Positions 1-50,891 of a DNA stretch of 64,000 nt are shown piece after piece. This DNA is from Minutocellus sp. GHC0000111 (Eukaryota). The stretch lies in NCBI GenBank assembly GCA_977018835.1, contig OZ361258.1:2790001-2854000 (forward strand), given 5' to 3'. Position numbers and translations under genes: made by a program. Below the pieces are notes generated by a model, which saw only the letters and a list, made by a program, of their open reading frames with translations, was not told where the DNA came from and made no database searches. Within the stretch, counting starts at the first letter, position 1. Every line of letters begins with the position of its first letter.

Positions 1-3000
1 GGCTCTGGCGTTGGTGGTTTTGCGGCCCTCGCATCGTCTCCAGCTCCTGCTGGTGCTGGTGCAGGGAGCAAGACATCGTCGACTGGCTTTGGTTTTGGCT
101 TTGGCGGTAGCAGTAGTAGTAGTACTAGTGGTGTCAGCGGTGTTGATTCTTCGATGGTGAAGCCATTGTTTGGATCGGTGCCTGCGGCTGCTCCTGCGCC
201 TACGTCTGAAGCCGCACCTGCTCCTGCGCCGGCTGGTGCATCTGCGACTGACAATGGTACCGACAACATTAGGGAAGACGATGTTGGAGTATCAGGAACG
301 GCGAAGCCTTTGTCGGATACTGATGAGGCGAGGACAGCCACGGCCGTCTTTGATTCTCTCGATGAGGGCAAGAAGGGCAGGGTACCGGCCTCAATGTTCG
401 AGGCGCTCACCGACGAGCTTGGCGAAGGCTTCCACGGGGACGAGTTCGACAAGCAACTTGCCATCATCGACCCTGAAGGGACGGGCTTCATCGCTCGGTC
501 CTCCTTTGCGGCATGGTACTCGGAGCTTGTCCTCGGAGGCTCTGGAGATGGCGAAGATGGTTCCGATGCTGGATCGCTCGACACTGAGGAGCGAGAAGAA
601 CGTGAGGAGGAGCGTCAGAATGCTGACGAGGCCTTTACTGCCGCGGCTGGTGAGGATGTGGACGTCCTTGCCGTGTCAGCCTTCAGTGATCTGATTGAGT
701 CTATGGGCACGACTTACTGCGAAGAGGAGCACCGACGTACCATCAAGAAAATTAGCAGCGAGGATGGCGCTACGATATCTCGTGATGCTTTCGTCGCTTG
801 GTATTTGGACTGGCTCTTTGGAGGCGATGAGTCCGATATCGAGAGCGACGAAGGTGAAGATGACGAGGATGGTGATGCCGACGGTGCTGGTGGTACTGGC
901 GGTGCATCGTCATCGGAGGGATGGGGAGGTACCTTTGGCGCTGCCGAGGAGGGTTCCTGGAAGTGCGATGCTTGTATGGTCCGGAACAAGGCTTCAGATG
1001 CCAAATGTGCTGCCTGTGAGACTGCACGCCCTGGATACGAAGCCAAGGCTGCGGAGGTATCGAGCGGCGATGGCTCGGCCACTGCGTCGTCAGCGGCGGC
1101 GTTTGCATCTGAGATAGGAACTGGTGGATTTTCATTCGGTGGCGGTGGTAGTAGCAGCAGTACCGCGGCACCTGCTCCTGCCTCATCCTCATCGATTGGA
1201 GCCGGCGGCTTCAGCTTTGGTGGCAATACTACTACTAGCAGCGCAGCGACACCAGCTCCGGCCTTTGGCGCATCATCGGCGGTCTCGTCCTCATCTTCAG
1301 GCGGAGGCTTCGCGTTTGGTGCGCCCGCCACTGCAGCACCAGCTCCACCTTCGGGAGTAGGAGGAGGAGGCTTTACGTTCGGCGTCAAGCCTGCCGTCAC
1401 ATCTGCTGCATCTGACAAAGTGAATCCTGACGCCACCGCACCCTCAGCTGCCCAACAAGAGAATCCGGCAGCGGAAAAAGAAGACGACGAGGTCTACTCA
1501 GACGACCTCATCGGCACCGCCGACACAGCACGGACGGCCTACGATGAGATCGCTGAGGGTGCAACATCTCTTCCCAGCAGCAGATTCGACGATCTGCTCG
1601 ATGTGGTCGGCGAGGGCTTCTATGGCGACGAGAAGGACGAGCAGCTTGCCATCATCGATCCGAGCAGCACCGGCACCATTACCAAGAAGGCCTTTGTTTC
1701 GTGGTACGTCAACTTCGTCACCGCTGCAGATGCCGACGATGACGAGTCGGCCTCGTTAGATACCGCCGACCGCGAAGAACGCGAGGAGGAAAGGCAGAAC
1801 GCCGACCAGGCCTTTACTGACACCGTCGGCGAGGGCATCGATGTTATTGACTCGGCCGCCTTTGGAGATCTGATTGAGTCGATGGGCACTACATACTGTG
1901 AGGAAGAGCATCGCCGCACCATCAAGAAGATTAGCGGTGCGGATGGGAAGATTTCCCGCGATGCATTCATTGCATGGTATCTTGACTGGTTGTTTGGGGG
2001 TGATGAGTCCGACATCGAGACGGATGAGGAGGACGAAGCCGGCGAAGAAGAAGAGAGACCGGCCACATCGGGTGGAGAAGGGTGGGGCAATGCATTCGGC
2101 GTCGAGGAAGGATCCTGGAAGTGCGATGCTTGCATGGTGCGTAACAAGGCCGGTGATACCAAGTGTGCTGCTTGTGAGACTGTCCGCCCTGGATACGAAG
2201 ACAAGCAAGAGGAGAGCAGCGATAGTGCTGCCGCGAGTGGGTCTGCCATCGGCGCCGGTGGTTTTAGCTTCGGCGGAGGGGCGAGTACTGCTGCTGCGGC
2301 CGCTCCTTCGATTGGATCGGGAGGATTCAGCTTTGGTGGGGCTACTACATCGGCACCAGCACCAGCACCGGCACCTGTAACTGCTGTATCGTCTGGCGGA
2401 GGCTTCAGCTTTGGTGCCAAGCCATCATCAACTGCAACCAGCTCTACTACCGGAGGATTCAGTTTTGGTGCACCGCCTGCGCCTGCGGGCAAGGTACCGG
2501 ACAAGGCCGAGAAGAAGAAAGACGAGAAGGCAGTATCATCCTCAAGTGCAAGTTTCCCCCCTCTTGCGACCAAGGCACCGACGCCCTTCTCGGCAACTGC
2601 GAAGGCGAGTGCAGCAGCTCCAGCAGCCACCGCAAAGCCCGCCGCTTCAAGTAGCGCCTTCCCACCGATGAGTACTGCAGCTCCTAAGAATCCATTCTCG
2701 GCAACTGCGAAGGCCCCTGTTGCTGCGGCTCCAGCACCAGCTCCAGCACCAGCGGCCAAGCCTGCTGCTTCGAGTAGCGCATTCCCGCCGATGAGTACTG
2801 CAGCTCCTAAGAATCCGTTCTCCGCTCCCTCGAAGCCTCCAGCACCAGCACCAGCGGCCAAGTCCGCTGCTTCGAGTAGTGCATTCCCGCCGATGAGTAC
2901 TGCAGCTCCTAAGAATCCGTTCGCGTCGGTAAAGCTGACGTCGAGCTCTGCTACAATCGGCAGCACGAGTACGAGCGGTGGCTTTTCGTTTGGCACCCCA

Positions 3001-6000
3001 AGCACTCTCGGCGGTGGCAGCGGGGCGCCGGCAACGACCAAGGGCGGCTTTTCGTTTGGATCGACGGGAAGTGCGACCTTTGGCAGTCCACCGGCCAAGT
3101 TGGAGGCCCCCAAGGCCACCGAGCAGGAGAAGTCAGCGCCGATATTTGGCTCTGGGTCGAAGGCTCCGGTCTTTGGAAGCGGCTCTGGCGTTGGTGGTTT
3201 TGCGGCCCTCGCATCGTCTCCAGCTCCTGCTGGTGCTGGTGCAGGGAGCAAGACATAGTCGACTGGCTTTGGTTTTGGCTTTGGCGGTAGCAGTAGTAGT
3301 AGTACTAGTGGTGTCAGCGGTGTTGATTCTTCGATGGTGAAGCCATTGTTTGGATCGGTGCCTGCGGCTGCTCCTGCGCCTACGTCTGAAGCCGCACCTG
3401 CTCCTGCGCCGGCTGGTGCATCTGCGACTGACAATGGTACCGACAACATTAGGGAAGACGATGTTGGAGTATCAGGAACGGCGAAGCCTTTGTCGGATAC
3501 TGATGAGGCGAGGACAGCCACGGCCGTCTTTGATTCTCTCGATGAGGGCAAGAAGGGCAGGGTACCGGCCTCAATGTTCGAGGCGCTCACCGACGAGCTT
3601 GGCGAAGGCTTCCACGGGGACGAGTTCGACAAGCAACTTGCCATCATCGACCCTGAAGGGACGGGCTTCATCGCTCGGTCCTCCTTTGCGGCATGGTACT
3701 CGGAGCTTGTCCTCGGAGGCTCTGGAGATGGCGAAGATGGTTCCGATGCTGGATCGCTCGACACTGAGGAGCGAGAAGAACGTGAGGAGGAGCGTCAGAA
3801 TGCTGACGAGGCCTTTACTGCCGCGGCTGGTGAGGATGTGGACGTCCTTGCCGTGTCAGCCTTCAGTGATCTGATTGAGTCTATGGGCACGACTTACTGC
3901 GAAGAGGAGCACCGACGTACCATCAAGAAAATTAGCAGCGAGGATGGCGCTACGATATCTCGTGATGCTTTCGTCGCTTGGTATTTGGACTGGCTCTTTG
4001 GAGGCGATGAGTCCGATATCGAGAGCGACGAAGGTGAAGATGACGAGGATGGTGATGCCGACGGTGCTGGTGGTACTGGCGGTGCATCGTCATCGGAGGG
4101 ATGGGGAGGTACCTTTGGCGCTGCCGAGGAGGGTTCCTGGAAGTGCGATGCTTGTATGGTCCGGAACAAGGCTTCAGATGCCAAATGTGCTGCCTGTGAG
4201 ACTGCACGCCCTGGATACGAAGCCAAGGCTGCGGAGGTATCGAGCGGCGATGGCTCGGCCACTGCGTCGTCAGCGGCGGCGTTTGCATCTGAGATAGGAA
4301 CTGGTGGATTTTCATTCGGTGGCGGTGGTAGTAGCAGCAGTACCGCGGCACCTGCTCCTGCCTCATCCTCATCGATTGGAGCCGGCGGCTTCAGCTTTGG
4401 TGGCAATACTACTACTAGCAGCGCAGCGACACCAGCTCCGGCCTTTGGCGCATCATCGGCGGTCTCGTCCTCATCTTCAGGCGGAGGCTTCGCGTTTGGT
4501 GCGCCCGCCACTGCAGCACCAGCTCCACCTTCGGGAGTAGGAGGAGGAGGCTTTACGTTCGGCGTCAAGCCTGCCGTCACATCTGCTGCATCTGACAAAG
4601 TGAATCCTGACGCCACCGCACCCTCAGCTGCCCAACAAGAGAATCCGGCAGCGGAAAAAGAAGACGACGAGGTCTACTCAGACGACCTCATCGGCACCGC
4701 CGACACAGCACGGACGGCCTACGATGAGATCGCTGAGGGTGCAACATCTCTTCCCAGCAGCAGATTCGACGATCTGCTCGATGTGGTCGGCGAGGGCTTC
4801 TATGGCGACGAGAAGGACGAGCAGCTTGCCATCATCGATCCGAGCAGCACCGGCACCATTACCAAGAAGGCCTTTGTTTCGTGGTACGTCAACTTCGTCA
4901 CCGCTGCAGATGCCGACGATGACGAGTCGGCCTCGTTAGATACCGCCGACCGCGAAGAACGCGAGGAGGAAAGGCAGAACGCCGACCAGGCCTTTACTGA
5001 CACCGTCGGCGAGGGCATCGATGTTATTGACTCGGCCGCCTTTGGAGATCTGATTGAGTCGATGGGCACTACATACTGTGAGGAAGAGCATCGCCGCACC
5101 ATCAAGAAGATTAGCGGTGCGGATGGGAAGATTTCCCGCGATGCATTCATTGCATGGTATCTTGACTGGTTGTTTGGGGGTGATGAGTCCGACATCGAGA
5201 CGGATGAGGAGGACGAAGCCGGCGAAGAAGAAGAGAGACCGGCCACATCGGGTGGAGAAGGGTGGGGCAATGCATTCGGCGTCGAGGAAGGATCCTGGAA
5301 GTGCGATGCTTGCATGGTGCGTAACAAGGCCGGTGATACCAAGTGTGCTGCTTGTGAGACTGTCCGCCCTGGATACGAAGACAAGCAAGAGGAGAGCAGC
5401 GATAGTGCTGCCGCGAGTGGGTCTGCCATCGGCGCCGGTGGTTTTAGCTTCGGCGGAGGGGCGAGTACTGCTGCTGCGGCCGCTCCTTCGATTGGATCGG
5501 GAGGATTCAGCTTTGGTGGGGCTACTACATCGGCACCAGCACCAGCACCGGCACCTGTAACTGCTGTATCGTCTGGCGGAGGCTTCAGCTTTGGTGCCAA
5601 GCCATCATCAACTGCAACCAGCTCTACTACCGGAGGATTCAGTTTTGGTGCACCGCCTGCGCCTGCGGGCAAGGTACCGGACAAGGCCGAGAAGAAGAAA
5701 GACGAGAAGGCAGTATCATCCTCAAGTGCAAGTTTCCCCCCTCTTGCGACCAAGGCACCGACGCCCTTCTCGGCAACTGCGAAGGCGAGTGCAGCAGCTC
5801 CAGCAGCCACCGCAAAGCCCGCCGCTTCAAGTAGCGCCTTCCCACCGATGAGTACTGCAGCTCCTAAGAATCCATTCTCGGCAACTGCGAAGGCCCCTGT
5901 TGCTGCGGCTCCAGCACCAGCTCCAGCACCAGCGGCCAAGCCTGCTGCTTCGAGTAGCGCATTCCCGCCGATGAGTACTGCAGCTCCTAAGAATCCGTTC

Positions 6001-9000
6001 TCCGCTCCCTCGAAGCCTCCAGCACCAGCACCAGCGGCCAAGCCTGCTGCTTCGAGTAGCGCATTCCCGCCGATGAGTACTGCAGCTCCTAAGAATCCGT
6101 TCTCCGCTCCCTCGAAGCCTCCAGCACCAGCACCAGCGGCCAAGTCCGCTGCTTCGAGTAGTGCATTCCCGCCGATGAGTACTGCAGCTCCTAAGAATCC
6201 GTTCGCGTCGGTAAAGCTGACGTCGAGCTCTGCTACAATCGGCAGCACGAGTACGAGCGGTGGCTTTTCGTTTGGCACCCCAAGCACTCTCGGCGGTGGC
6301 AGCGGGGCGCCGGCAACGACCAAGGGCGGCTCTTCGTTTGGATCGACGGGAAGTGCGACCTTTGGCAGTCCACCGGCCAAGTTGGAGGCCCCCAAGGCCA
6401 CCGAGCAGGAGAAGTCAGCGCCGATATTTGGCTCTGGGTCGAAGGCTCCGGTCTTTGGAAGCGGCTCTGGCGTTGGTGGTTTTGCGGCCCTCGCATCGTC
6501 TCCAGCTCCTGCTGGTGCTGGTGCAGGGAGCAAGACATCGTCGACTGGCTTTGGTTTTGGCTTTGGCGGTAGCAGTAGTAGTAGTACTAGTGGTGTCAGC
6601 GGTGTTGATTCTTCGATGGTGAAGCCATTGTTTGGATCGGTGCCTGCGGCTGCTCCTGCGCCTACGTCTGAAGCCGCACCTGCTCCTGCGCCGGCTGGTG
6701 CATCTGCGACTGACAATGGTACCGACAACATTAGGGAAGACGATGTTGGAGTATCAGGAACGGCGAAGCCTTTGTCGGATACTGATGAGGCGAGGACAGC
6801 CACGGCCGTCTTTGATTCTCTCGATGAGGGCAAGAAGGGCAGGGTACCGGCCTCAATGTTCGAGGCGCTCACCGACGAGCTTGGCGAAGGCTTCCACGGG
6901 GACGAGTTCGACAAGCAACTTGCCATCATCGACCCTGAAGGGACGGGCTTCATCGCTCGGTCCTCCTTTGCGGCATGGTACTCGGAGCTTGTCCTCGGAG
7001 GCTCTGGAGATGGCGAAGATGGTTCCGATGCTGGATCGCTCGACACTGAGGAGCGAGAAGAACGTGAGGAGGAGCGTCAGAATGCTGACGAGGCCTTTAC
7101 TGCCGCGGCTGGTGAGGATGTGGACGTCCTTGCCGTGTCAGCCTTCAGTGATCTGATTGAGTCTATGGGCACGACTTACTGCGAAGAGGAGCACCGACGT
7201 ACCATCAAGAAAATTAGCAGCGAGGATGGCGCTACGATATCTCGTGATGCTTTCGTCGCTTGGTATTTGGACTGGCTCTTTGGAGGCGATGAGTCCGATA
7301 TCGAGAGCGACGAAGGTGAAGATGACGAGGATGGTGATGCCGACGGTGCTGGTGGTACTGGCGGTGCATCGTCATCGGAGGGATGGGGAGGTACCTTTGG
7401 CGCTGCCGAGGAGGGTTCCTGGAAGTGCGATGCTTGTATGGTCCGGAACAAGGCTTCAGATGCCAAATGTGCTGCCTGTGAGACTGCACGCCCTGGATAC
7501 GAAGCCAAGGCTGCGGAGGTATCGAGCGGCGATGGCTCGGCCACTGCGTCGTCAGCGGCGGCGTTTGCATCTGAGATAGGAACTGGTGGATTTTCATTCG
7601 GTGGCGGTGGTAGTAGCAGCAGTACCGCGGCACCTGCTCCTGCCTCATCCTCATCGATTGGAGCCGGCGGCTTCAGCTTTGGTGGCAATACTACTACTAG
7701 CAGCGCAGCGACACCAGCTCCGGCCTTTGGCGCATCATCGGCGGTCTCGTCCTCATCTTCAGGCGGAGGCTTCGCGTTTGGTGCGCCCGCCACTGCAGCA
7801 CCAGCTCCACCTTCGGGAGTAGGAGGAGGAGGCTTTACGTTCGGCGTCAAGCCTGCCGTCACATCTGCTGCATCTGACAAAGTGAATCCTGACGCCACCG
7901 CACCCTCAGCTGCCCAACAAGAGAATCCGGCAGCGGAAAAAGAAGACGACGAGGTCTACTCAGACGACCTCATCGGCACCGCCGACACAGCACGGACGGC
8001 CTACGATGAGATCGCTGAGGGTGCAACATCTCTTCCCAGCAGCAGATTCGACGATCTGCTCGATGTGGTCGGCGAGGGCTTCTATGGCGACGAGAAGGAC
8101 GAGCAGCTTGCCATCATCGATCCGAGCAGCACCGGCACCATTACCAAGAAGGCCTTTGTTTCGTGGTACGTCAACTTCGTCACTGCTGCAGATGCCGACG
8201 ATGACGAGTCGGCCTCGTTAGATACCGCCGACCGCGAAGAACGCGAGGAGGAAAGGCAGAACGCCGACCAGGCCTTTACTGACACCGTCGGCGAGGGCAT
8301 CGATGTTATTGACTCGGCCGCCTTTGGAGATCTGATTGAGTCGATGGGCACTACATACTGTGAGGAAGAGCATCGCCGCACCATCAAGAAGATTAGCGGT
8401 GCGGATGGGAAGATTTCCCGCGATGCATTCATTGCATGGTATCTTGACTGGTTGTTTGGGGGTGATGAGTCCGACATCGAGACGGATGAGGAGGACGAAG
8501 CCGGCGAAGAAGAAGAGAGACCGGCCACATCGGGTGGAGAAGGGTGGGGCAATGCATTCGGCGTCGAGGAAGGATCCTGGAAGTGCGATGCTTGCATGGT
8601 GCGTAACAAGGCCGGTGATACCAAGTGTGCTGCTTGTGAGACTGTCCGCCCTGGATACGAAGACAAGCAAGAGGAGAGCAGCGATAGTGCTGCCGCGAGT
8701 GGGTCTGCCATCGGCGCCGGTGGTTTTAGCTTCGGCGGAGGGGCGAGTACTGCTGCTGCGGCCGCTCCTTCGATTGGATCGGGAGGATTCAGCTTTGGTG
8801 GGGCTACTACATCGGCACCAGCACCAGCACCGGCACCTGTAACCGCTGTATCGTCTGGCGGAGGCTTCAGCTTTGGTGCCAAGCCATCATCAACTGCAAC
8901 CAGCTCTACTACCGGAGGATTCAGTTTTGGTGCACCGCCTGCGCCTGCGGGCAAGGTACCGGACAAGGCCGAGAAGAAGAAAGACGAGAAGGCAGTATCA

Positions 9001-12000
9001 TCCTCAAGTGCAAGTTTCCCCCCTCTTGCGACCAAGGCACCGACGCCCTTCTCGGCAACTGCGAAGGCGAGTGCAGCAGCTCCAGCAGCCACCGCAAAGC
9101 CCGCCGCTTCAAGTAGCGCCTTCCCACCGATGAGTACTGCAGCTCCTAAGAATCCATTCTCGGCAACTGCGAAGGCCCCTGTTGCTGCGGCTCCAGCACC
9201 AGCTCCAGCACCAGCGGCCAAGCCTGCTGCTTCGAGTAGCGCATTCCCGCCGATGAGTACTGCAGCTCCTAAGAATCCGTTCTCCGCTCCCTCGAAGCCT
9301 CCAGCACCAGCACCAGCGGCCAAGCCTGCTGCTTCGAGTAGCGCATTCCCGCCGATGAGTACTGCAGCTCCTAAGAATCCGTTCTCCGCTCCCTCGAAGC
9401 CTCCAGCACCAGCACCAGCGGCCAAGTCCGCTGCTTCGAGTAGTGCATTCCCGCCGATGAGTACTGCAGCTCCTAAGAATCCGTTCTCCGCTCCCTCGAA
9501 GCCTCCAGCACCAGCACCAGCGGCCAAGTCCGCTGCTTCGAGTAGTGCATTCCCGCCGATGAGTACTGCAGCTCCTAAGAATCCGTTCTCCGCTCCCTCG
9601 AAGCCTCCAGCACCAGCACCAGCGGCCAAGTCCGCTGCTTCGAGTAGTGCATTCCCGCCGATGAGTACTGCAGCTCCTAAGAATCCGTTCGCGTCGGTAA
9701 AGCTGACGTCGAGCTCTGCTACAATCGGCAGCACGAGTACGAGCGGTGGCTTTTCGTTTGGCACCCCAAGCACTCTCGGCGGTGGCAGCGGGGCGCCGGC
9801 AACGACCAAGGGCGGCTTTTCGTTTGGATCGACGGGAAGTGCGACCTTTGGCAGTCCACCGGCCAAGTTGGAGGCCCCCAAGGCCACCGAGCAGGAGAAG
9901 TCAGCGCCGATATTTGGCTCTGGGTCGAAGGCTCCGGTCTTTGGAAGCGGCTCTGGCGTTGGTGGTTTTGCGGCCCTCGCATCGTCTCCAGCTCCTGCTG
10001 GTGCTGGTGCAGGGAGCAAGACATCGTCGACTGGCTTTGGTTTTGGCTTTGGCGGTAGCAGTAGTAGTAGTACTAGTGGTGTCAGCGGTGTTGATTCTTC
10101 GATGGTGAAGCCATTGTTTGGATCGGTGCCTGCGGCTGCTCCTGCGCCTACGTCTGAAGCCGCACCTGCTCCTGCGCCGGCTGGTGCATCTGCGACTGAC
10201 AATGGTACCGACAACATTAGGGAAGACGATGTTGGAGTATCAGGAACGGCGAAGCCTTTGTCGGATACTGATGAGGCGAGGACAGCCACGGCCGTCTTTG
10301 ATTCTCTCGATGAGGGCAAGAAGGGCAGGGTACCGGCCTCAATGTTCGAGGCGCTCACCGACGAGCTTGGCGAAGGCTTCCACGGGGACGAGTTCGACAA
10401 GCAACTTGCCATCATCGACCCTGAAGGGACGGGCTTCATCGCTCGGTCCTCCTTTGCGGCATGGTACTCGGAGCTTGTCCTCGGAGGCTCTGGAGATGGC
10501 GAAGATGGTTCCGATGCTGGATCGCTCGACACTGAGGAGCGAGAAGAACGTGAGGAGGAGCGTCAGAATGCTGACGAGGCCTTTACTGCCGCGGCTGGTG
10601 AGGATGTGGACGTCCTTGCCGTGTCAGCCTTCAGTGATCTGATTGAGTCTATGGGCACGACTTACTGCGAAGAGGAGCACCGACGTACCATCAAGAAAAT
10701 TAGCAGCGAGGATGGCGCTACGATATCTCGTGATGCTTTCGTCGCTTGGTATTTGGACTGGCTCTTTGGAGGCGATGAGTCCGATGTCGAGAGCGACGAA
10801 GGTGAAGATGACGAGGATGGTGATGCCGACGGTGCTGGTGGTACTGGCGGTGCATCGTCATCGGAGGGATGGGGAGGTACCTTTGGCGCTGCCGAGGAGG
10901 GTTCCTGGAAGTGCGATGCTTGTATGGTCCGGAACAAGGCTTCAGATGCCAAATGTGCTGCCTGTGAGACTGCACGCCCTGGATACGAAGCCAAGGCTGC
11001 GGAGGTATCGAGCGGCGATGGCTCGGCCACTGCGTCGTCAGCGGCGGCGTTTGCATCTGAGATAGGAACTGGTGGATTTTCATTCGGTGGCGGTGGTAGT
11101 AGCAGCAGTACCGCGGCACCTGCTCCTGCCTCATCCTCATCGATTGGAGCCGGCGGCTTCAGCTTTGGTGGCAATACTACTACTAGCAGCGCAGCGACAC
11201 CAGCTCCGGCCTTTGGCGCATCATCGGCGGTCTCGTCCTCATCTTCAGGCGGAGGCTTCGCGTTTGGTGCGCCCGCCACTGCAGCACCAGCTCCACCTTC
11301 GGGAGTAGGAGGAGGAGGCTTTACGTTCGGCGTCAAGCCTGCCGTCACATCTGCTGCATCTGACAAAGTGAATCCTGACGCCACCGCACCCTCAGCTGCC
11401 CAACAAGAGAATCCGGCAGCGGAAAAAGAAGACGACGAGGTCTACTCAGACGACCTCATCGGCACCGCCGACACAGCACGGACGGCCTACGATGAGATCG
11501 CTGAGGGTGCAACATCTCTTCCCAGCAGCAGATTCGACGATCTGCTCGATGTGGTCGGCGAGGGCTTCTATGGCGACGAGAAGGACGAGCAGCTTGCCAT
11601 CATCGATCCGAGCAGCACCGGCACCATTACCAAGAAGGCCTTTGTTTCGTGGTACGTCAACTTCGTCACCGCTGCAGATGCCGACGATGACGAGTCGGCC
11701 TCGTTAGATACCGCCGACCGCGAAGAACGCGAGGAGGAAAGGCAGAACGCCGACCAGGCCTTTACTGACACCGTCGGCGAGGGCATCGATGTTATTGACT
11801 CGGCCGCCTTTGGAGATCTGATTGAGTCGATGGGCACTACATACTGTGAGGAAGAGCATCGCCGCACCATCAAGAAGATTAGCGGTGCGGATGGGAAGAT
11901 TTCCCGCGATGCATTCATTGCATGGTATCTTGACTGGTTGTTTGGGGGTGATGAGTCCGACATCGAGACGGATGAGGAGGACGAAGCCGGCGAAGAAGAA

Positions 12001-15000
12001 GAGAGACCGGCCACATCGGGTGGAGAAGGGTGGGGCAATGCATTCGGCGTCGAGGAAGGATCCTGGAAGTGCGATGCTTGCATGGTGCGTAACAAGGCCG
12101 GTGATACCAAGTGTGCTGCTTGTGAGACTGTCCGCCCTGGATACGAAGACAAGCAAGAGGAGAGCAGCGATAGTGCTGCCGCGAGTGGGTCTGCCATCGG
12201 CGCCGGTGGTTTTAGCTTCGGCGGAGGGGCGAGTACTGCTGCTGCGGCCGCTCCTTCGATTGGATCGGGAGGATTCAGCTTTGGTGGGGCTACTACATCG
12301 GCACCAGCACCAGCACCGGCACCTGTAACTGCTGTATCGTCTGGCGGAGGCTTCAGCTTTGGTGCCAAGCCATCATCAACTGCAACCAGCTCTACTACCG
12401 GAGGATTCAGTTTTGGTGCACCGCCTGCGCCTGCGGGCAAGGTACCGGACAAGGCCGAGAAGAAGAAAGACGAGAAGGCAGTATCATCCTCAAGTGCAAG
12501 TTTCCCCCCTCTTGCGACCAAGGCACCGACGCCCTTCTCGGCAACTGCGAAGGCGAGTGCAGCAGCTCCAGCAGCCACCGCAAAGCCCGCCGCTTCAAGT
12601 AGCGCCTTCCCACCGATGAGTACTGCAGCTCCTAAGAATCCATTCTCGGCAACTGCGAAGGCCCCTGTTGCTGCGGCTCCAGCACCAGCTCCAGCACCAG
12701 CGGCCAAGCCTGCTGCTTCGAGTAGCGCATTCCCGCCGATGAGTACTGCAGCTCCTAAGAATCCGTTCTCCGCTCCCTCGAAGCCTCCAGCACCAGCACC
12801 AGCGGCCAAGCCTGCTGCTTCGAGTAGCGCATTCCCGCCGATGAGTACTGCAGCTCCTAAGAATCCGTTCTCCGCTCCCTCGAAGCCTCCAGCACCAGCA
12901 CCAGCGGCCAAGTCCGCTGCTTCGAGTAGTGCATTCCCGCCGATGAGTACTGCAGCTCCTAAGAATCCGTTCGCGTCGGTAAAGCTGACGTCGAGCTCTG
13001 CTACAATCGGCAGCACGAGTACGAGCGGTGGCTTTTCGTTTGGCACCCCAAGCACTCTCGGCGGTGGCAGCGGGGCGCCGGCAACGACCAAGGGCGGCTT
13101 TTCGTTTGGATCGACGGGAAGTGCGACCTTTGGCAGTCCACCGGCCAAGTTGGAGGCCCCCAAGGCCACCGAGCAGGAGAAGTCAGCGCCGATATTTGGC
13201 TCTGGGTCGAAGGCTCCGGTCTTTGGAAGCGGCTCTGGCGTTGGTGGTTTTGCGGCCCTCGCATCGTCTCCAGCTCCTGCTGGTGCTGGTGCAGGGAGCA
13301 AGACATCGTCGACTGGCTTTGGTTTTGGCTTTGGCGGTAGCAGTAGTAGTAGTACTAGTGGTGTCAGCGGTGTTGATTCTTCGATGGTGAAGCCATTGTT
13401 TGGATCGGTGCCTGCGGCTGCTCCTGCGCCTACGTCTGAAGCCGCACCTGCTCCTGCGCCGGCTGGTGCATCTGCGACTGACAATGGTACCGACAACATT
13501 AGGGAAGACGATGTTGGAGTATCAGGAACGGCGAAGCCTTTGTCGGATACTGATGAGGCGAGGACAGCCACGGCCGTCTTTGATTCTCTCGATGAGGGCA
13601 AGAAGGGCAGGGTACCGGCCTCAATGTTCGAGGCGCTCACCGACGAGCTTGGCGAAGGCTTCCACGGGGACGAGTTCGACAAGCAACTTGCCATCATCAA
13701 CCCTGAAGGGACGGGCTTCATCGCTCGGTCCTCCATTGCGGCATGGTACTCGGAGCTTGTCCTCGGAGGCTCTGGAGATGGCGAAGATGGTTCCGATGCT
13801 GGATCGCTCGACACTGAGGAGCGAGAAGAACGTGAGGAGGAGCGTCAGAATGCTGACGAGGCCTTTACTGCCGCGGCTGGTGAGGATGTGGACGTCCTTG
13901 CCGTGTCAGCCTTCAGTGATCTGATTGAGTCTATGGGCACGACTTACTGCGAAGAGGAGCACCGACGTACCATCAAGAAAATTAGCAGCGAGGATGGCGC
14001 TACGATATCTCGTGATGCTTTCGTCGCTTGGTATTTGGACTGGCTCTTTGGAGGCGATGAGTCCGATATCGAGAGCGACGAAGGTGAAGATGACGAGGAT
14101 GGTGATGCCGACGGTGCTGGTGGTACTGGCGGTGCATCGTCATCGGAGGGATGGGGAGGTACCTTTGGCGCTGCCGAGGAGGGTTCCTGGAAGTGCGATG
14201 CTTGTATGGTCCGGAACAAGGCTTCAGATGCCAAATGTGCTGCCTGTGAGACTGCACGCCCTGGATACGAAGCCAAGGCTGCGGAGGTATCGAGCGGCGA
14301 TGGCTCGGCCACTGCGTCGTCAGCGGCGGCGTTTGCATCTGAGATAGGAACTGGTGGATTTTCATTCGGTGGCGGTGGTAGTAGCAGCAGTACCGCGGCA
14401 CCTGCTCCTGCCTCATCCTCATCGATTGGAGCCGGCGGCTTCAGCTTTGGTGGCAATACTACTACTAGCAGCGCAGCGACACCAGCTCCGGCCTTTGGCG
14501 CATCATCGGCGGTCTCGTCCTCATCTTCAGGCGGAGGCTTCGCGTTTGGTGCGCCCGCCACTGCAGCACCAGCTCCACCTTCGGGAGTAGGAGGAGGAGG
14601 CTTTACGTTCGGCGTCAAGCCTGCCGTCACATCTGCTGCATCTGACAAAGTGAATCCTGACGCCACCGCACCCTCAGCTGCCCAACAAGAGAATCCGGCA
14701 GCGGAAAAAGAAGACGACGAGGTCTACTCAGACGACCTCATCGGCACCGCCGACACAGCACGGACGGCCTACGATGAGATCGCTGAGGGTGCAACATCTC
14801 TTCCCAGCAGCAGATTCGACGATCTGCTCGATGTGGTCGGCGAGGGCTTCTATGGCGACGAGAAGGACGAGCAGCTTGCCATCATCGATCCGAGCAGCAC
14901 CGGCACCATTACCAAGAAGGCCTTTGTTTCGTGGTACGTCAACTTCGTCACTGCTGCAGATGCCGACGATGACGAGTCGGCCTCGTTAGATACCGCCGAC

Positions 15001-18000
15001 CGCGAAGAACGCGAGGAGGAAAGGCAGAACGCCGACCAGGCCTTTACTGACACCGTCGGCGAGGGCATCGATGTTATTGACTCGGCCGCCTTTGGAGATC
15101 TGATTGAGTCGATGGGCACTACATACTGTGAGGAAGAGCATCGCCGCACCATCAAGAAGATTAGCGGTGCGGATGGGAAGATTTCCCGCGATGCATTCAT
15201 TGCATGGTATCTTGACTGGTTGTTTGGGGGTGATGAGTCCGACATCGAGACGGATGAGGAGGACGAAGCCGGCGAAGAAGAAGAGAGACCGGCCACATCG
15301 GGTGGAGAAGGGTGGGGCAATGCATTCGGCGTCGAGGAAGGATCCTGGAAGTGCGATGCTTGCATGGTGCGTAACAAGGCCGGTGATACCAAGTGTGCTG
15401 CTTGTGAGACTGTCCGCCCTGGATACGAAGACAAGCAAGAGGAGAGCAGCGATAGTGCTGCCGCGAGTGGGTCTGCCATCGGCGCCGGTGGTTTTAGCTT
15501 GGCGGAGGGGCGAGTACTGCTGCTGCGGCCGCTCCTTCGATTGGATCGGGAGGATTCAGCTTTGGTGGGGCTACTACATCGGCACCAGCACCAGCACCGG
15601 CACCTGTAACCGCTGTATCGTCTGGCGGAGGCTTCAGCTTTGGTGCCAAGCCATCATCAACTGCAACCAGCTCTACTACCGGAGGATTCAGTTTTGGTGC
15701 ACCGCCTGCGCCTGCGGGCAAGGTACCGGACAAGGCCGAGAAGAAGAAAGACGAGAAGGCAGTATCATCCTCAAGTGCAAGTTTCCCCCCTCTTGCGACC
15801 AAGGCACCGACGCCCTTCTCGGCAACTGCGAAGGCGAGTGCAGCAGCTCCAGCAGCCACCGCAAAGCCCGCCGCTTCAAGTAGCGCCTTCCCACCGATGA
15901 GTACTGCAGCTCCTAAGAATCCATTCTCGGCAACTGCGAAGGCCCCTGTTGCTGCGGCTCCAGCACCAGCTCCAGCACCAGCGGCCAAGCCTGCTGCTTC
16001 GAGTAGCGCATTCCCGCCGATGAGTACTGCAGCTCCTAAGAATCCGTTCTCCGCTCCCTCGAAGCCTCCAGCACCAGCACCAGCGGCCAAGCCTGCTGCT
16101 TCGAGTAGCGCATTCCCGCCGATGAGTACTGCAGCTCCTAAGAATCCGTTCTCCGCTCCCTCGAAGCCTCCAGCACCAGCACCAGCGGCCAAGCCTGCTG
16201 CTTCGAGTAGCGCATTCCCGCCGATGAGTACTGCAGCTCCTAAGAATCCGTTCTCCGCTCCCTCGAAGCCTCCAGCACCAGCACCAGCGGCCAAGTCCGC
16301 TGCTTCGAGTAGTGCATTCCCGCCGATGAGTACTGCAGCTCCTAAGAATCCGTTCGCGTCGGTAAAGCTGACGTCGAGCTCTGCTACAATCGGCAGCACG
16401 AGTACGAGCGGTGGCTTTTCGTTTGGCACCCCAAGCACTCTCGGCGGTGGCAGCGGGGCGCCGGCAACGACCAAGGGCGGCTCTTCGTTTGGATCGACGG
16501 GAAGTGCGACCTTTGGCAGTCCACCGGCCAAGTTGGAGGCCCCCAAGGCCACCGAGCAGGAGAAGTCAGCGCCGATATTTGGCTCTGGGTCGAAGGCTCC
16601 GGTCTTTGGAAGCGGCTCTGGCGTTGGTGGTTTTGCGGCCCTCGCATCGTCTCCAGCTCCTGCTGGTGCTGGTGCAGGGAGCAAGACATCGTCGACTGGC
16701 TTTGGTTTTGGCTTTGGCGGTAGCAGTAGTAGTAGTACTAGTGGTGTCAGCGGTGTTGATTCTTCGATGGTGAAGCCATTGTTTGGATCGGTGCCTGCGG
16801 CTGCTCCTGCGCCTACGTCTGAAGCCGCACCTGCTCCTGCGCCGGCTGGTGCATCTGCGACTGACAATGGTACCGACAACATTAGGGAAGACGATGTTGG
16901 AGTATCAGGAACGGCGAAGCCTTTGTCGGATACTGATGAGGCGAGGACAGCCACGGCCGTCTTTGATTCTCTCGATGAGGGCAAGAAGGGCAGGGTACCG
17001 GCCTCAATGTTCGAGGCGCTCACCGACGAGCTTGGCGAAGGCTTCCACGGGGACGAGTTCGACAAGCAACTTGCCATCATCGACCCTGAAGGGACGGGCT
17101 TCATCGCTCGGTCCTCCTTTGCGGCATGGTACTCGGAGCTTGTCCTCGGAGGCTCTGGAGATGGCGAAGATGGTTCCGATGCTGGATCGCTCGACACTGA
17201 GGAGCGAGAAGAACGTGAGGAGGAGCGTCAGAATGCTGACGAGGCCTTTACTGCCGCGGCTGGTGAGGATGTGGACGTCCTTGCCGTGTCAGCCTTCAGT
17301 GATCTGATTGAGTCTATGGGCACGACTTACTGCGAAGAGGAGCACCGACGTACCATCAAGAAAATTAGCAGCGAGGATGGCGCTACGATATCTCGTGATG
17401 CTTTCGTCGCTTGGTATTTGGACTGGCTCTTTGGAGGCGATGAGTCCGATATCGAGAGCGACGAAGGTGAAGATGACGAGGATGGTGATGCCGACGGTGC
17501 TGGTGGTACTGGCGGTGCATCGTCATCGGAGGGATGGGGAGGTACCTTTGGCGCTGCCGAGGAGGGTTCCTGGAAGTGCGATGCTTGTATGGTCCGGAAC
17601 AAGGCTTCAGATGCCAAATGTGCTGCCTGTGAGACTGCACGCCCTGGATACGAAGCCAAGGCTGCGGAGGTATCGAGCGGCGATGGCTCGGCCACTGCGT
17701 CGTCAGCGGCGGCGTTTGCATCTGAGATAGGAACTGGTGGATTTTCATTCGGTGGCGGTGGTAGTAGCAGCAGTACCGCGGCACCTGCTCCTGCCTCATC
17801 CTCATCGATTGGAGCCGGCGGCTTCAGCTTTGGTGGCAATACTACTACTAGCAGCGCAGCGACACCAGCTCCGGCCTTTGGCGCATCATCGGCGGTCTCG
17901 TCCTCATCTTCAGGCGGAGGCTTCGCGTTTGGTGCGCCCGCCACTGCAGCACCAGCTCCACCTTCGGGAGTAGGAGGAGGAGGCTTTACGTTCGGCGTCA

Positions 18001-21000
18001 AGCCTGCCGTCACATCTGCTGCATCTGACAAAGTGAATCCTGACGCCACCGCACCCTCAGCTGCCCAACAAGAGAATCCGGCAGCGGAAAAAGAAGACGA
18101 CGAGGTCTACTCAGACGACCTCATCGGCACCGCCGACACAGCACGGACGGCCTACGATGAGATCGCTGAGGGTGCAACATCTCTTCCCAGCAGCAGATTC
18201 GACGATCTGCTCGATGTGGTCGGCGAGGGCTTCTATGGCGACGAGAAGGACGAGCAGCTTGCCATCATCGATCCGAGCAGCACCGGCACCATTACCAAGA
18301 AGGCCTTTGTTTCGTGGTACGTCAACTTCGTCACTGCTGCAGATGCCGACGATGACGAGTCGGCCTCGTTAGATACCGCCGACCGCGAAGAACGCGAGGA
18401 GGAAAGGCAGAACGCCGACCAGGCCTTTACTGACACCGTCGGCGAGGGCATCGATGTTATTGACTCGGCCGCCTTTGGAGATCTGATTGAGTCGATGGGC
18501 ACTACATACTGTGAGGAAGAGCATCGCCGCACCATCAAGAAGATTAGCGGTGCGGATGGGAAGATTTCCCGCGATGCATTCATTGCATGGTATCTTGACT
18601 GGTTGTTTGGGGGTGATGAGTCCGACATCGAGACGGATGAGGAGGACGAAGCCGGCGAAGAAGAAGAGAGACCGGCCACATCGGGTGGAGAAGGGTGGGG
18701 CAATGCATTCGGCGTCGAGGAAGGATCCTGGAAGTGCGATGCTTGCATGGTGCGTAACAAGGCCGGTGATACCAAGTGTGCTGCTTGTGAGACTGTCCGC
18801 CCTGGATACGAAGACAAGCAAGAGGAGAGCAGCGATAGTGCTGCCGCGAGTGGGTCTGCCATCGGCGCCGGTGGTTTTAGCTTCGGCGGAGGGGCGAGTA
18901 CTGCTGCTGCGGCCGCTCCTTCGATTGGATCGGGAGGATTCAGCTTTGGTGGGGCTACTACATCGGCACCAGCACCAGCACCGGCACCTGTAACCGCTGT
19001 ATCGTCTGGCGGAGGCTTCAGCTTTGGTGCCAAGCCATCATCAACTGCAACCAGCTCTACTACCGGAGGATTCAGTTTTGGTGCACCGCCTGCGCCTGCG
19101 GGCAAGGTACCGGACAAGGCCGAGAAGAAGAAAGACGAGAAGGCAGTATCATCCTCAAGTGCAAGTTTCCCCCCTCTTGCGACCAAGGCACCGACGCCCT
19201 TCTCGGCAACTGCGAAGGCGAGTGCAGCAGCTCCAGCAGCCACCGCAAAGCCCGCCGCTTCAAGTAGCGCCTTCCCACCGATGAGTACTGCAGCTCCTAA
19301 GAATCCATTCTCGGCAACTGCGAAGGCCCCTGTTGCTGCGGCTCCAGCACCAGCTCCAGCACCAGCGGCCAAGCCTGCTGCTTCGAGTAGCGCATTCCCG
19401 CCGATGAGTACTGCAGCTCCTAAGAATCCGTTCTCCGCTCCCTCGAAGCCTCCAGCACCAGCACCAGCGGCCAAGCCTGCTGCTTCGAGTAGCGCATTCC
19501 CGCCGATGAGTACTGCAGCTCCTAAGAATCCGTTCTCCGCTCCCTCGAAGCCTCCAGCACCAGCACCAGCGGCCAAGCCTGCTGCTTCGAGTAGCGCATT
19601 CCCGCCGATGAGTACTGCAGCTCCTAAGAATCCGTTCTCCGCTCCCTCGAAGCCTCCAGCACCAGCACCAGCGGCCAAGTCCGCTGCTTCGAGTAGTGCA
19701 TTCCCGCCGATGAGTACTGCAGCTCCTAAGAATCCGTTCGCGTCGGTAAAGCTGACGTCGAGCTCTGCTACAATCGGCAGCACGAGTACGAGCGGTGGCT
19801 TTTCGTTTGGCACCCCAAGCACTCTCGGCGGTGGCAGCGGGGCGCCGGCAACGACCAAGGGCGGCTTTTCGTTTGGATCGACGGGAAGTGCGACCTTTGG
19901 CAGTCCACCGGCCAAGTTGGAGGCCCCCAAGGCCACCGAGCAGGAGAAGTCAGCGCCGATATTTGGCTCTGGGTCGAAGGCTCCGGTCTTTGGAAGCGGC
20001 TCTGGCGTTGGTGGTTTTGCGGCCCTCGCATCGTCTCCAGCTCCTGCTGGTGCTGGTGCAGGGAGCAAGACATCGTCGACTGGCTTTGGTTTTGGCTTTG
20101 GCGGTAGCAGTAGTAGTAGTACTAGTGGTGTCAGCGGTGTTGATTCTTCGATGGTGAAGCCATTGTTTGGATCGGTGCCTGCGGCTGCTCCTGCGCCTAC
20201 GTCTGAAGCCGCACCTGCTCCTGCGCCGGCTGGTGCATCTGCGACTGACAATGGTACCGACAACATTAGGGAAGACGATGTTGGAGTATCAGGAACGGCG
20301 AAGCCTTTGTCGGATACTGATGAGGCGAGGACAGCCACGGCCGTCTTTGATTCTCTCGATGAGGGCAAGAAGGGCAGGGTACCGGCCTCAATGTTCGAGG
20401 CGCTCACCGACGAGCTTGGCGAAGGCTTCCACGGGGACGAGTTCGACAAGCAACTTGCCATCATCGACCCTGAAGGGACGGGCTTCATCGCTCGGTCCTC
20501 CTTTGCGGCATGGTACTCGGAGCTTGTCCTCGGAGGCTCTGGAGATGGCGAAGATGGTTCCGATGCTGGATCGCTCGACACTGAGGAGCGAGAAGAACGT
20601 GAGGAGGAGCGTCAGAATGCTGACGAGGCCTTTACTGCCGCGGCTGGTGAGGATGTGGACGTCCTTGCCGTGTCAGCCTTCAGTGATCTGATTGAGTCTA
20701 TGGGCACGACTTACTGCGAAGAGGAGCACCGACGTACCATCAAGAAAATTAGCAGCGAGGATGGCGCTACGATATCTCGTGATGCTTTCGTCGCTTGGTA
20801 TTTGGACTGGCTCTTTGGAGGCGATGAGTCCGATATCGAGAGCGACGAAGGTGAAGATGACGAGGATGGTGATGCCGACGGTGCTGGTGGTACTGGCGGT
20901 GCATCGTCATCGGAGGGATGGGGAGGTACCTTTGGCGCTGCCGAGGAGGGTTCCTGGAAGTGCGATGCTTGTATGGTCCGGAACAAGGCTTCAGATGCCA

Positions 21001-24000
21001 AATGTGCTGCCTGTGAGACTGCACGCCCTGGATACGAAGCCAAGGCTGCGGAGGTATCGAGCGGCGATGGCTCGGCCACTGCGTCGTCAGCGGCGGCGTT
21101 TGCATCTGAGATAGGAACTGGTGGATTTTCATTCGGTGGCGGTGGTAGTAGCAGCAGTACCGCGGCACCTGCTCCTGCCTCATCCTCATCGATTGGAGCC
21201 GGCGGCTTCAGCTTTGGTGGCAATACTACTACTAGCAGCGCAGCGACACCAGCTCCGGCCTTTGGCGCATCATCGGCGGTCTCGTCCTCATCTTCAGGCG
21301 GAGGCTTCGCGTTTGGTGCGCCCGCCACTGCAGCACCAGCTCCACCTTCGGGAGTAGGAGGAGGAGGCTTTACGTTCGGCGTCAAGCCTGCCGTCACATC
21401 TGCTGCATCTGACAAAGTGAATCCTGACGCCACCGCACCCTCAGCTGCCCAACAAGAGAATCCGGCAGCGGAAAAAGAAGACGACGAGGTCTACTCAGAC
21501 GACCTCATCGGCACCGCCGACACAGCACGGACGGCCTACGATGAGATCGCTGAGGGTGCAACATCTCTTCCCAGCAGCAGATTCGACGATCTGCTCGATG
21601 TGGTCGGCGAGGGCTTCTATGGCGACGAGAAGGACGAGCAGCTTGCCATCATCGATCCGAGCAGCACCGGCACCATTACCAAGAAGGCCTTTGTTTCGTG
21701 GTACGTCAACTTCGTCACCGCTGCAGATGCCGACGATGACGAGTCGGCCTCGTTAGATACCGCCGACCGCGAAGAACGCGAGGAGGAAAGGCAGAACGCC
21801 GACCAGGCCTTTACTGACACCGTCGGCGAGGGCATCGATGTTATTGACTCGGCCGCCTTTGGAGATCTGATTGAGTCGATGGGCACTACATACTGTGAGG
21901 AAGAGCATCGCCGCACCATCAAGAAGATTAGCGGTGCGGATGGGAAGATTTCCCGCGATGCATTCATTGCATGGTATCTTGACTGGTTGTTTGGGGGTGA
22001 TGAGTCCGACATCGAGACGGATGAGGAGGACGAAGCCGGCGAAGAAGAAGAGAGACCGGCCACATCGGGTGGAGAAGGGTGGGGCAATGCATTCGGCGTC
22101 GAGGAAGGATCCTGGAAGTGCGATGCTTGCATGGTGCGTAACAAGGCCGGTGATACCAAGTGTGCTGCTTGTGAGACTGTCCGCCCTGGATACGAAGACA
22201 AGCAAGAGGAGAGCAGCGATAGTGCTGCCGCGAGTGGGTCTGCCATCGGCGCCGGTGGTTTTAGCTTCGGCGGAGGGGCGAGTACTGCTGCTGCGGCCGC
22301 TCCTTCGATTGGATCGGGAGGATTCAGCTTTGGTGGGGCTACTACATCGGCACCAGCACCAGCACCGGCACCTGTAACTGCTGTATCGTCTGGCGGAGGC
22401 TTCAGCTTTGGTGCCAAGCCATCATCAACTGCAACCAGCTCTACTACCGGAGGATTCAGTTTTGGTGCACCGCCTGCGCCTGCGGGCAAGGTACCGGACA
22501 AGGCCGAGAAGAAGAAAGACGAGAAGGCAGTATCATCCTCAAGTGCAAGTTTCCCCCCTCTTGCGACCAAGGCACCGACGCCCTTCTCGGCAACTGCGAA
22601 GGCGAGTGCAGCAGCTCCAGCAGCCACCGCAAAGCCCGCCGCTTCAAGTAGCGCCTTCCCACCGATGAGTACTGCAGCTCCTAAGAATCCATTCTCGGCA
22701 ACTGCGAAGGCCCCTGTTGCTGCGGCTCCAGCACCAGCTCCAGCACCAGCGGCCAAGCCTGCTGCTTCGAGTAGCGCATTCCCGCCGATGAGTACTGCAG
22801 CTCCTAAGAATCCGTTCTCCGCTCCCTCGAAGCCTCCAGCACCAGCACCAGCGGCCAAGCCTGCTGCTTCGAGTAGCGCATTCCCGCCGATGAGTACTGC
22901 AGCTCCTAAGAATCCGTTCTCCGCTCCCTCGAAGCCTCCAGCACCAGCACCAGCGGCCAAGCCTGCTGCTTCGAGTAGCGCATTCCCGCCGATGAGTACT
23001 GCAGCTCCTAAGAATCCGTTCTCCGCTCCCTCGAAGCCTCCAGCACCAGCACCAGCGGCCAAGTCCGCTGCTTCGAGTAGTGCATTCCCGCCGATGAGTA
23101 CTGCAGCTCCTAAGAATCCGTTCGCGTCGGTAAAGCTGACGTCGAGCTCTGCTACAATCGGCAGCACGAGTACGAGCGGTGGCTTTTCGTTTGGCACCCC
23201 AAGCACTCTCGGCGGTGGCAGCGGGGCGCCGGCAACGACCAAGGGCGGCTTTTCGTTTGGATCGACGGGAAGTGCGACCTTTGGCAGTCCACCGGCCAAG
23301 TTGGAGGCCCCCAAGGCCACCGAGCAGGAGAAGTCAGCGCCGATATTTGGCTCTGGGTCGAAGGCTCCGGTCTTTGGAAGCGGCTCTGGCGTTGGTGGTT
23401 TTGCGGCCCTCGCATCGTCTCCAGCTCCTGCTGGTGCTGGTGCAGGGAGCAAGACATCGTCGACTGGCTTTGGTTTTGGCTTTGGCGGTAGCAGTAGTAG
23501 TAGTACTAGTGGTGTCAGCGGTGTTGATTCTTCGATGGTGAAGCCATTGTTTGGATCGGTGCCTGCGGCTGCTCCTGCGCCTACGTCTGAAGCCGCACCT
23601 GCTCCTGCGCCGGCTGGTGCATCTGCGACTGACAATGGTACCGACAACATTAGGGAAGACGATGTTGGAGTATCAGGAACGGCGAAGCCTTTGTCGGATA
23701 CTGATGAGGCGAGGACAGCCACGGCCGTCTTTGATTCTCTCGATGAGGGCAAGAAGGGCAGGGTACCGGCCTCAATGTTCGAGGCGCTCACCGACGAGCT
23801 TGGCGAAGGCTTCCACGGGGACGAGTTCGACAAGCAACTTGCCATCATCGACCCTGAAGGGACGGGCTTCATCGCTCGGTCCTCCTTTGCGGCATGGTAC
23901 TCGGAGCTTGTCCTCGGAGGCTCTGGAGATGGCGAAGATGGTTCCGATGCTGGATCGCTCGACACTGAGGAGCGAGAAGAACGTGAGGAGGAGCGTCAGA

Positions 24001-49100: not shown

Positions 49101-49330
49101 GTGCCATTCAAGTCAGGCACGTTCACAATGGCCCGCTGCCGACCAAGAGAGCGACAGAACTGGGTTTCGTTTGTCCAGGGGTAGCGAATGGGACATGAAC
49201 GCGAGCCGATATTCGTTGGTCCCCAGGGAAAAGATTCGAGATCGGCAGTTGAACTGGAGGCCGATGTCGTTCCAGATTTCGCAAAATGAAGCAATAACAA
49301 GAGAACAGCGTTCCAATGGGTATCACCCAT
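46112..49330 (-). pseudogene. DUF6067/GH123-like glycoside hydrolase-related protein with signal peptide; in-frame TAG at 48131-48133 and 3' end truncated at the array
   Basis: ORFs 48131..49465 and 46112..47998 are in the same frame, joined by 44 sense codons (WLNS*TGLDEGTITRPYTPI...). Motifs LSRLAWLNS, HQSNRLNPYINWPF, KIYYTVHELTNH, GLYYDG, PFGSFGEML, NRWRGMLFGM and IAIASW recall bacterial DUF6067 proteins. Probable ATG at 49330 (MGDTHWNAVLLLLLHFA). Confidence 0.65.
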
Positions 49331-49627
49331 GGTTGACCAGGCAGATATGTTGACGATCTTGACTTGCTTTGCTTGGGATTGACCAGGCAGATATCGTGCA
49401 TGTTGACTTGCTTTGCTGCTGACTTGGGACGGGGCCCGGTGGTGGTATCTTGTGTCAGATTGCAAGATGGCGTGACATAAAAAAGAAGGTCAATCTTTGT
49501 TAGCAAATTGCACGCGTAAAATCATGTGACACTTTCGTGCGCACGTGACCATGCGAACGCAAACACAATTCGACATTTCGAACTTCTCGACTGCTCCAAC
49601 CTTTCCTTCAGCTCGCCCTTCAAGAGA

Positions 49628-50792: not shown

Positions 50793-50891
50793 TACTTATT
50801 GACCTTCGCAATGGCGATTATTCTAGCTACGTAGTAGATCTACCTGGAGCTGCCTACACCAAATATAATTACTTATTGACCTTCGCAATGG
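50793..50891 (+). repeat. 22-bp exact direct repeat TACTTATTGACCTTCGCAATGG flanking a 55-bp segment
   Basis: Copies at 50793-50814 and 50870-50891; the second includes the ATG at 50888. Confidence 0.85.

Follow-up and report, generated by a model that had tools for sequence, protein, structure and literature searches.

A putative EF-hand and zinc-finger cassette of stramenopile Nup214-family nucleoporins, amplified in tandem in a Minutocellus paralog

The main result of our analysis of the window, the whole 64,000-nucleotide stretch of Minutocellus sp. contig OZ361258.1 considered here, is a repeated protein cassette that we read, with a probability of roughly 0.7, as belonging to a stramenopile Nup214-family nucleoporin. 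On this reading, each cassette would comprise two closed EF-hand lobes, likely free of calcium, and a likely Ran-binding zinc finger, and amplification would have left 28 copies of it in a paralog without the coiled coil. The segment 319-2190, in which an earlier note had described two modules of EF-hand pairs, charged helix, acidic tract, GWG motif, zinc finger and FxFG, is unit 1 of an array of near-identical units (>99% identity, 3.3 kb each, 46 kb in total), and both modules are present as claimed in its frame +1 translation. The features of this unit are the following:

319..534, plus strand: module A lobe 1, a degenerate EF-hand pair (AlphaFold2 helices 2-14, 24-34, 40-50 and 60-72; Pfam EF-hand_7 E 2.5e-4, below cut-off; conservation)
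541..579, plus strand: acidic disordered inter-lobe linker ahead of the charged helix (pLDDT <50 at residues 75-87)
583..819, plus strand: module A lobe 2, a long charged entering helix and a degenerate EF-hand pair (AlphaFold2, Foldseek, oomycete alignment)
919..936, plus strand: aromatic extension GWG-x-x-F ahead of finger A (phmmer alignment with the N-terminal extension of Nup358 (RanBP2) fingers)
949..1035, plus strand: RanBP2-type zinc finger A (Pfam PF00641, 36.7 bits against a cut-off of 27)
1120..1390, plus strand: FxFG-rich disordered spacer (translation)
1516..2010, plus strand: module B, two degenerate EF-hand lobes with 65% identity to module A
2080..2193, plus strand: aromatic extension and RanBP2-type zinc finger B (Pfam PF00641, 36.7 bits against a cut-off of 27)
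2550..2922, plus strand: proline-rich FPP(M/L)-x-x-x-AP-x-x-PF repeats, on a 102-bp subrepeat whose copy number differs among units

The assignment of the lobes to the EF-hand superfamily rests on AlphaFold2, Foldseek and profile matches, because the Pfam EF-hand_7 model detects no more than one pair, the first of module A, and that below threshold (21.8 bits against a cut-off of 30). The AlphaFold2 model of 319-834, built from 42 sequences, contains the two helix-loop-helix pairs that had been proposed (mean pLDDT 85.9, pTM 0.49), and its best Foldseek matches are centrin and calmodulin (E ~1e-5), the same families that the EF region matches in sequence-profile searches; the ESM Atlas returns generic EF-hand clusters at 0.92-0.93, with few features in common, which is a lead at most. 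In the predicted models the lobes are paired helix-loop-helix units joined by a short two-stranded sheet, as in the calmodulin/centrin superfamily. Lobe 1 of module A is marked by an inter-EF linker GEGFHGDE and an F-x-x-W-Y exit helix, and lobe 2, the lobe held in common with oomycete relatives in our alignment, by a GTTYCEEEH linker and a WY-x-x-W-x-FG exit. The charged helix of the earlier description is real, but it is not a separate linker helix: in the model it lengthens, on the N-terminal side, the entering helix of EF-hand 3 (residues 89-110). In module B this helix begins with DTADR in the translation, and not with DTEER as had been written. The unit as a whole contains 23 FG dipeptides. 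With calmodulin and centrin (Cdc31 in TREX-2) the cassette would share a two-lobed fold of four EF-hands, from which it differs in that the lobes are built into a nucleoporin, have degenerate loops and are modelled closed, and in that a long acidic linker takes the place of the central helix; oomycete relatives, moreover, use single lobes. These degenerate lobes represent a conserved domain that falls mostly below the Pfam cut-offs.

Two other identities for the lobes were considered and set aside. In the EH domain, an EF pair that binds NPF motifs, a tryptophan of helix 3 lines the NPF pocket; the lobes have leucine or a similar residue at this place, no EH match appears in our Pfam and Foldseek listings, and NPF is not conserved in the repeats of the relatives. 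A Cys/His metal site in GTTYCEEEH was likewise rejected: its cysteine is invariant in 39/39 modules, yet it is substituted in most single-lobe relatives.

A canonical calcium-binding loop has 12 residues, with aspartate at position 1 and glutamate or aspartate at position 12. Judged against this consensus, none of the 8 loops in the two modules of unit 1 is canonical, and the same holds for all but one of 155 loops in 39 modules and all but one of 296 lobes. The three loops that the earlier note had quoted as lacking the glutamate have methionine, serine and alanine at that position, and its suggestion that the modules have lost their calcium loops and are probably calcium-independent agrees well with these counts. 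We therefore consider it likely, from sequence, that the lobes of the cassette bind no calcium. That they should instead be working calcium sensors tuning traffic through the pore seems most improbable: EF2 does retain aspartate at position 1 in 37 of the 39 modules, and acidic tracts flank the lobes, but position 12 of EF2 is alanine or serine in 33 of 39, EF3 and EF4 mostly lack even the first aspartate, and canonical loops are as rare as stated.

The proteins in which relatives of the cassette reside point to Nup214 as the host. A search with the EF region of 2974 longer candidates recovered 36 proteins, and one of 240 shorter candidates a further 16, the named matches coming from diatoms, from Aureococcus and, in one instance (P0037), from an Alexandrium data set, this last being treated as a probable contamination. 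Of the 150 representatives listed by a profile search, 122 were new; the lobe was present in 109, and 33 of these exceed 1500 aa. Among these 33 long relatives a finger was found in 32, a propeller in 23, a coiled-coil block in 27, and propeller and coiled-coil block together in 22, the HMMs having been built here from the longer proteins of the EF-region search. Relatives with both elements, in diatoms as well as oomycetes, carry between one and four cassettes between them. The propeller itself matches the human Nup214 N-terminal domain over its full length in a profile of 23 relatives (E ~1e-23), and exceeds the cut-off for Pfam PF16755 (Nup159/214 propeller) in 7 of 19 long relatives and 2 of 36 relatives. 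The coiled-coil block, a conserved helical segment in 27 of the 33 long relatives, has no sequence match to the solved coiled coils of Nup214 or Nup159. Ten proteins were looked up; the oomycetes Peronosclerospora, Phytophthora, Lagenidium and Aphanomyces account for five of them and the diatom Epithemia for one, and the name Nup214 is attached to none of the ten.

On these grounds the cassette is, as far as sequence can tell, a regular part of the middle region of stramenopile Nup214. The proposal of an FG-nucleoporin host is borne out, with FG repeats present and a Nup214-type propeller in the relatives, and the co-occurrence of EF-hands, RanBP2-type fingers and FG repeats in stramenopiles is found in diatoms and oomycetes. 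The architecture, which had been called unusual, is so with respect to animals and fungi, but it is regular in these two groups. An identity with Nup153 or another basket protein is ruled out by the propeller. The relatives share the N-terminal propeller and the FG repeats with human Nup214 (CAN) and yeast Nup159, and carry a putatively equivalent coiled-coil block. They differ in that the stramenopile members insert cassettes of EF lobes and zinc fingers together with proline-rich repeats, mostly ahead of the coiled coil, and have a small repeated helical domain at their C-terminal end; the copy in the window differs further, with 28 cassettes (by module counts) and no coiled coil. Oomycete proteins have a single lobe per cassette, corresponding to lobe 2, which makes it probable that the doubling of the lobe came later.

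Several features accompany the cassette in its hosts. Proline-rich repeats of the form aromatic-P-P ... P-x-x-F lie between cassettes and coiled coil in both diatoms and oomycetes (window 2550-2922, P0077, P0081, P0085), and the YPPDT repeats of oomycete relatives are related to those of the window. The C-terminal repeated helical domain (Y-x-x-H/Y-N-P-x-K) occurs in 27 of the 33 long relatives (e.g. P0014, P0016, P0018, P0020, P0023) and has no Pfam match in the proteins scanned. The cassette has also been multiplied in other lineages, reaching 9, 6 and 4 copies in P0056, P0058 and P0057, and P0004 carries a near-identical duplication. In P0015 (Chaetoceros), possibly a chimeric transcript, a match to the Nup98 GLEBS stands ahead of the cassette.

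The cassette of stramenopile Nup214 is apparently undescribed. Titles and abstract openings yielded no account of EF-hand or zinc-finger cassettes in this protein, and in the main text of a survey of diatom and oomycete nucleoporins (PMC2951903) neither "EF-hand" nor "zinc finger" occurs. Lineage-specific variation of comparable kinds is on record: passages of PMC11825100 describe trypanosome NUP149 as a zinc-finger nucleoporin of the cytoplasmic face, which resembles our case as a lineage-specific protein of that face with repeated fingers and differs from it in that its fingers are reported there to be unlike those of Nup358. Tetrahymena has paralogs of Nup214 (Mac/MicNup214), one of which is missing a standard domain according to PMC5450191, a likeness to the copy in the window; in the text available from that source "EF-hand" occurs 0 times.

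Zinc finger A finds its best PDB matches in the fingers of Nup358 and Nup153. Leucine or methionine followed by valine at positions 13-14, and not Thr-Phe, is what we take to be the mark of Ran-binding RanBP2-type fingers, and among the relatives 121 of 179 fingers have methionine, serine or leucine followed by valine there, Thr-Phe being absent from the 15 commonest pairs, which span 170 of the 179. The aromatic extension precedes the finger in 142 of 179. In Nup358-type fingers a phenylalanine or leucine of this extension enters a pocket of Ran, and the fingers prefer Ran-GDP, according to parts of a preprint (Bley, bioRxiv 10.1101/2021.10.26.465790). It is hence likely, on sequence likeness, that the fingers of the cassette bind Ran, and, because they resemble the Ran-binding fingers of Nup358 and Nup153, that stramenopile Nup214 takes over part of the job of Nup358, which passages of PMC11825100 present as metazoan-specific. 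The likeness to Nup358/RanBP2 and Nup153 lies in RanBP2-type fingers with an aromatic N-terminal extension set among FG repeats. A cyclophilin domain, also a trait of Nup358, lies before or after the cassette in 5 of 36 and 7 of 109 relatives (P0020, P0026, P0027, P0029, P0035, P0119). The differences are that neither a RanBP1-type Ran-binding domain nor the helical N-terminal domain of Nup358 is listed in Pfam scans of the unit and of 36 and 19 relatives, that EF lobes lie between the fingers, and that the host has a Nup214 propeller. The host is not Nup358, even if it would in part be Nup358-like in function.

How the lobes themselves might act is best approached through lobe 2, which was folded on its own with AlphaFold2 (pLDDT 88.2, pTM 0.77). 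In Foldseek this model superposes on closed EF lobes with an rmsd of 1.6-1.8 A and on calcium-open calmodulin with 4.3-4.6 A, all single-lobe E-values being above 0.01; the closed lobes it matches, at that same level, are Mg-bound and apo calmodulin N-lobes and the EF-hand of MINDY3. The closed state is a property of the AlphaFold2 model of one lobe, and such a model is no proof that the lobe never opens. According to passages of PMC2726291, Cdc31 grips Sac3 through an open C-lobe with no effect of Ca2+, and a preprint (bioRxiv 10.1101/2025.07.16.665128) describes the MINDY3 EF-hand, in the part available, as closed, calcium-independent and binding ubiquitin and the RAD23 UBL by its surface. 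Because lobe 2 is modelled closed, because Cdc31 uses its open lobe for Sac3 and because the closed MINDY3 lobe binds on its surface, we favour constitutive rigid binding or spacing through the outer surface as the likely role of these lobes over an open, centrin-like pocket.

The centrin-like helix binding put forward in the earlier note therefore finds no support in the lobe-2 model, which fits closed lobes better than calcium-open calmodulin, and neither does the analogy with TREX-2, a Nup214-type host belonging to the cytoplasmic face whereas TREX-2 sits at the basket (PMC11825100, in part). That the lobes nonetheless open to grip an amphipathic or proline-rich helix, possibly their own FPPMS-type repeats, is unlikely in our estimation. 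The top two-lobe matches are indeed centrin and calmodulin, Cdc31 shows that such binding may proceed independently of calcium, and proline-rich repeats accompany the cassette in diatoms and oomycetes, but the closed model and the open C-lobe of Cdc31 speak against the idea, as does the F-x-x-W-Y motif, which 276 of 296 lobes carry on their exit helix. At this place of the exit helix calmodulin has its pocket methionines. A different suggestion, that ubiquitin-like folds (ubiquitin, SUMO or UBL) are the ligands of the closed lobes, which would so recruit a modified partner such as RanGAP beside the Ran-binding fingers, strikes us as quite doubtful. It draws on the MINDY3 EF-hand being among the nearest single-lobe matches (TM 0.84 by target, rmsd 1.6 A), on the binding properties of that domain, and on animal Nup358 holding SUMO-RanGAP1, as stated in passages of PMC11825100; against it, the MINDY3 match has an E of 0.058 with 17% identity, and apo-calmodulin lobes fit equally well. 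What the cassette would share with the MINDY3 insertion is a closed, calcium-free EF pair within a larger protein, a weak structural match only, and ubiquitin-like binding, known for MINDY3, is putative here.

The gene in the window is a Nup214-derived paralog and not a full member of the family. Coiled coil, propeller, C-terminal repeat and cyclophilin have no HMM match in any of its six frames, the 5' end of the gene lying before base 1, and in run X1 at most 1186 letters separate the exit of the array from the next gene. Protein P0013 tracks the unit closely and then continues into a different C-terminus with two Cys-x2-Cys pairs (P0013 852-979, P0005 445-549), which is common, whole or in part, to P0005, to P0006 and to L001, a locus of a related species, while in P0012 the same B cassette leads on to the coiled coil. 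A search for relatives of this C-terminal domain returned only the query (1 match among 75 candidates, proteins of 301-961 aa). A second copy, about 87-90% alike and at about single-copy depth, is present in 8/8 runs and is probably the parent gene. In comparison with L001, at a dS of 0.8-1.0, module A has a dN/dS of 0.097 (242 codons), module B one of 0.107 (120 codons) and an FG linker one of 0.169.

The array and its breaks are laid out as follows:

1..46127, plus strand: tandem array of no fewer than 14 units, each in frame and 3180-3486 bp long, beginning before the window (unit starts and differences, module counts)
3256..3258, plus strand: in-frame stop in unit 2, a single substitution, as assembled
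15498..45443, plus strand: open frame of 9981 codons in units 5-14, with a one-base deletion at either end, near 15500 (unit 5) and 45377 (unit 14)
46127..46128, no strand: junction left by a deletion, at which unit 14 meets the truncated 3' end of an opposite-strand GH123 gene and the paralog's own C-terminus is lost
46112-49489, minus strand: GH123 glycoside hydrolase gene (Pfam match; intron ~46571-46708)

In four runs not recorded as RNA, from two studies, contigs of the array are about 4-10x deeper than the flank (X1, 907 against 99-135; X8, 66 against 10-15; X9, 1510 against 155-255; X14, 74 against 17-20), depths that are no copy number and are read here only as "several copies". They support the reality of a multi-copy array. 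With the 102-bp subrepeat excluded, the units differ at 17 sites; variants carried by at least three units are synonymous in 5 of 5 cases, two of which travel together, against 2 of the 12 rarer ones (Fisher p ~0.003, by hand), the synonymous fraction of sites being 25%, and all but two of the length changes between units are multiples of 3. That the array is an assembly artefact, with one or two units written many times, is very unlikely: the unit identity above 99%, the single B cassette of P0013 and the resemblance of the frame breaks to consensus errors would be expected of it, but it accords poorly with the depth of the unit contigs in X1, X9, X8 and X14 and with the differences among units in blocks of shared variants and in subrepeat number. 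P0007, a 99% match to the window in scrambled pieces, was left out as a gene model.

The 3' end varies among samples. The junction of the window is present in contigs of 4/8 runs (X2, X4, X6, X12), with 30 array letters, one below the bridging bar, and a different sequence precedes 46128 in 3/8 (X1, X8, X9), X14 having no cover there. In X1 and X8 the alternative sequence meets the array where P0013's own C-terminus starts, and in X9 it leaves the GH123 frame open over the ten codons shown (read by hand). Because of these other sequences, the haplotype in the window likely carries a deletion that cuts both the paralog and the GH123 gene. It is damaged at this end and may be damaged internally as well. 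The one-base deletion at 45377 is missing from the majority contigs of 8/8 runs, contigs being assemblies that drop rare variants, and the private changes of unit 14 comprise 4 nonsynonymous and 2 synonymous ones. RNA runs cover the unit, and in X12 a spliced GH123 contig extends into the array at similar depth (25.5 vs 19.9), so that this cover may be antisense read-through from GH123.

Such observations bear on a reading in which the cassette works in a single-copy parent Nup214 and the array is a decaying, untranslated amplification, a coding satellite or pseudogene. We regard this as possible but somewhat unlikely. It would account for the stop at 3256, the frameshifts near 15500 and 45377 and the 3' deletion, for the private changes in unit 14, for depth ratios that vary among samples, for the lack of a coiled coil and for RNA cover that may be antisense. 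It sits less well with a dN/dS of 0.09-0.11 against L001, a relative at dS 0.8-1.0 that has the paralog's C-terminus, with shared variants that are all synonymous and length changes that are multiples of 3 save two, and with the different, apparently intact 3' end of 3/8 runs.

Returning to the amplified Nup214-family cassette, the reading we prefer, its context is that of human and yeast Nup214/Nup159, whose propeller recruits the DDX19/Dbp5 helicase and whose coiled coil, paired with Nup88/Nup62, anchors the protein at the pore's cytoplasmic face, the part most variable between lineages. The ordinary stramenopile gene would consist of propeller, FG repeats, one to four cassettes, proline-rich repeats and coiled coil, and its product, by analogy with human and yeast, would recruit the helicase and be anchored in the same manner. 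The fingers and their aromatic extension would hold Ran-GDP at the cytoplasmic face, the task of Nup358 in animals, and the lobes would act as rigid, constitutive binders or spacers through their outer surface and not through an open pocket. The copy in the window probably arose by duplication, acquired a different C-terminus, stayed under purifying selection and then grew in number of units through unequal crossing-over; any protein translated from it would be a long multivalent chain that binds Ran and transport receptors without the usual anchor. A bolder proposal, which we regard as doubtful, is that stramenopile Nup214 became a Nup358-like Ran platform independently of animals and that its unanchored paralog is translated as a polymer of more than 10,000 residues with at least 28 Ran-binding cassettes, its strain-variable length tuning the availability of Ran and transport receptors. 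A Nup214 with Ran-type fingers of its own, and with cyclophilin in some species, would constitute a convergent solution across diatoms and oomycetes. The array, for its part, would show to an extreme degree how domains can be amplified in a gene derived from a nucleoporin, its length and 3' end varying among natural strains.

Beyond the junction, the GH123 gene has had its 3' end cut by the array deletion, and its frame terminates within the array. The frames at 50880-53909, 62092-63267 and 63186-63989 have no Pfam match at E 0.001, and the neighbours at 49811-63989 comprise an ACT-domain protein, a cytochrome c heme lyase and VWA, dirigent-like and AAA-like frames.
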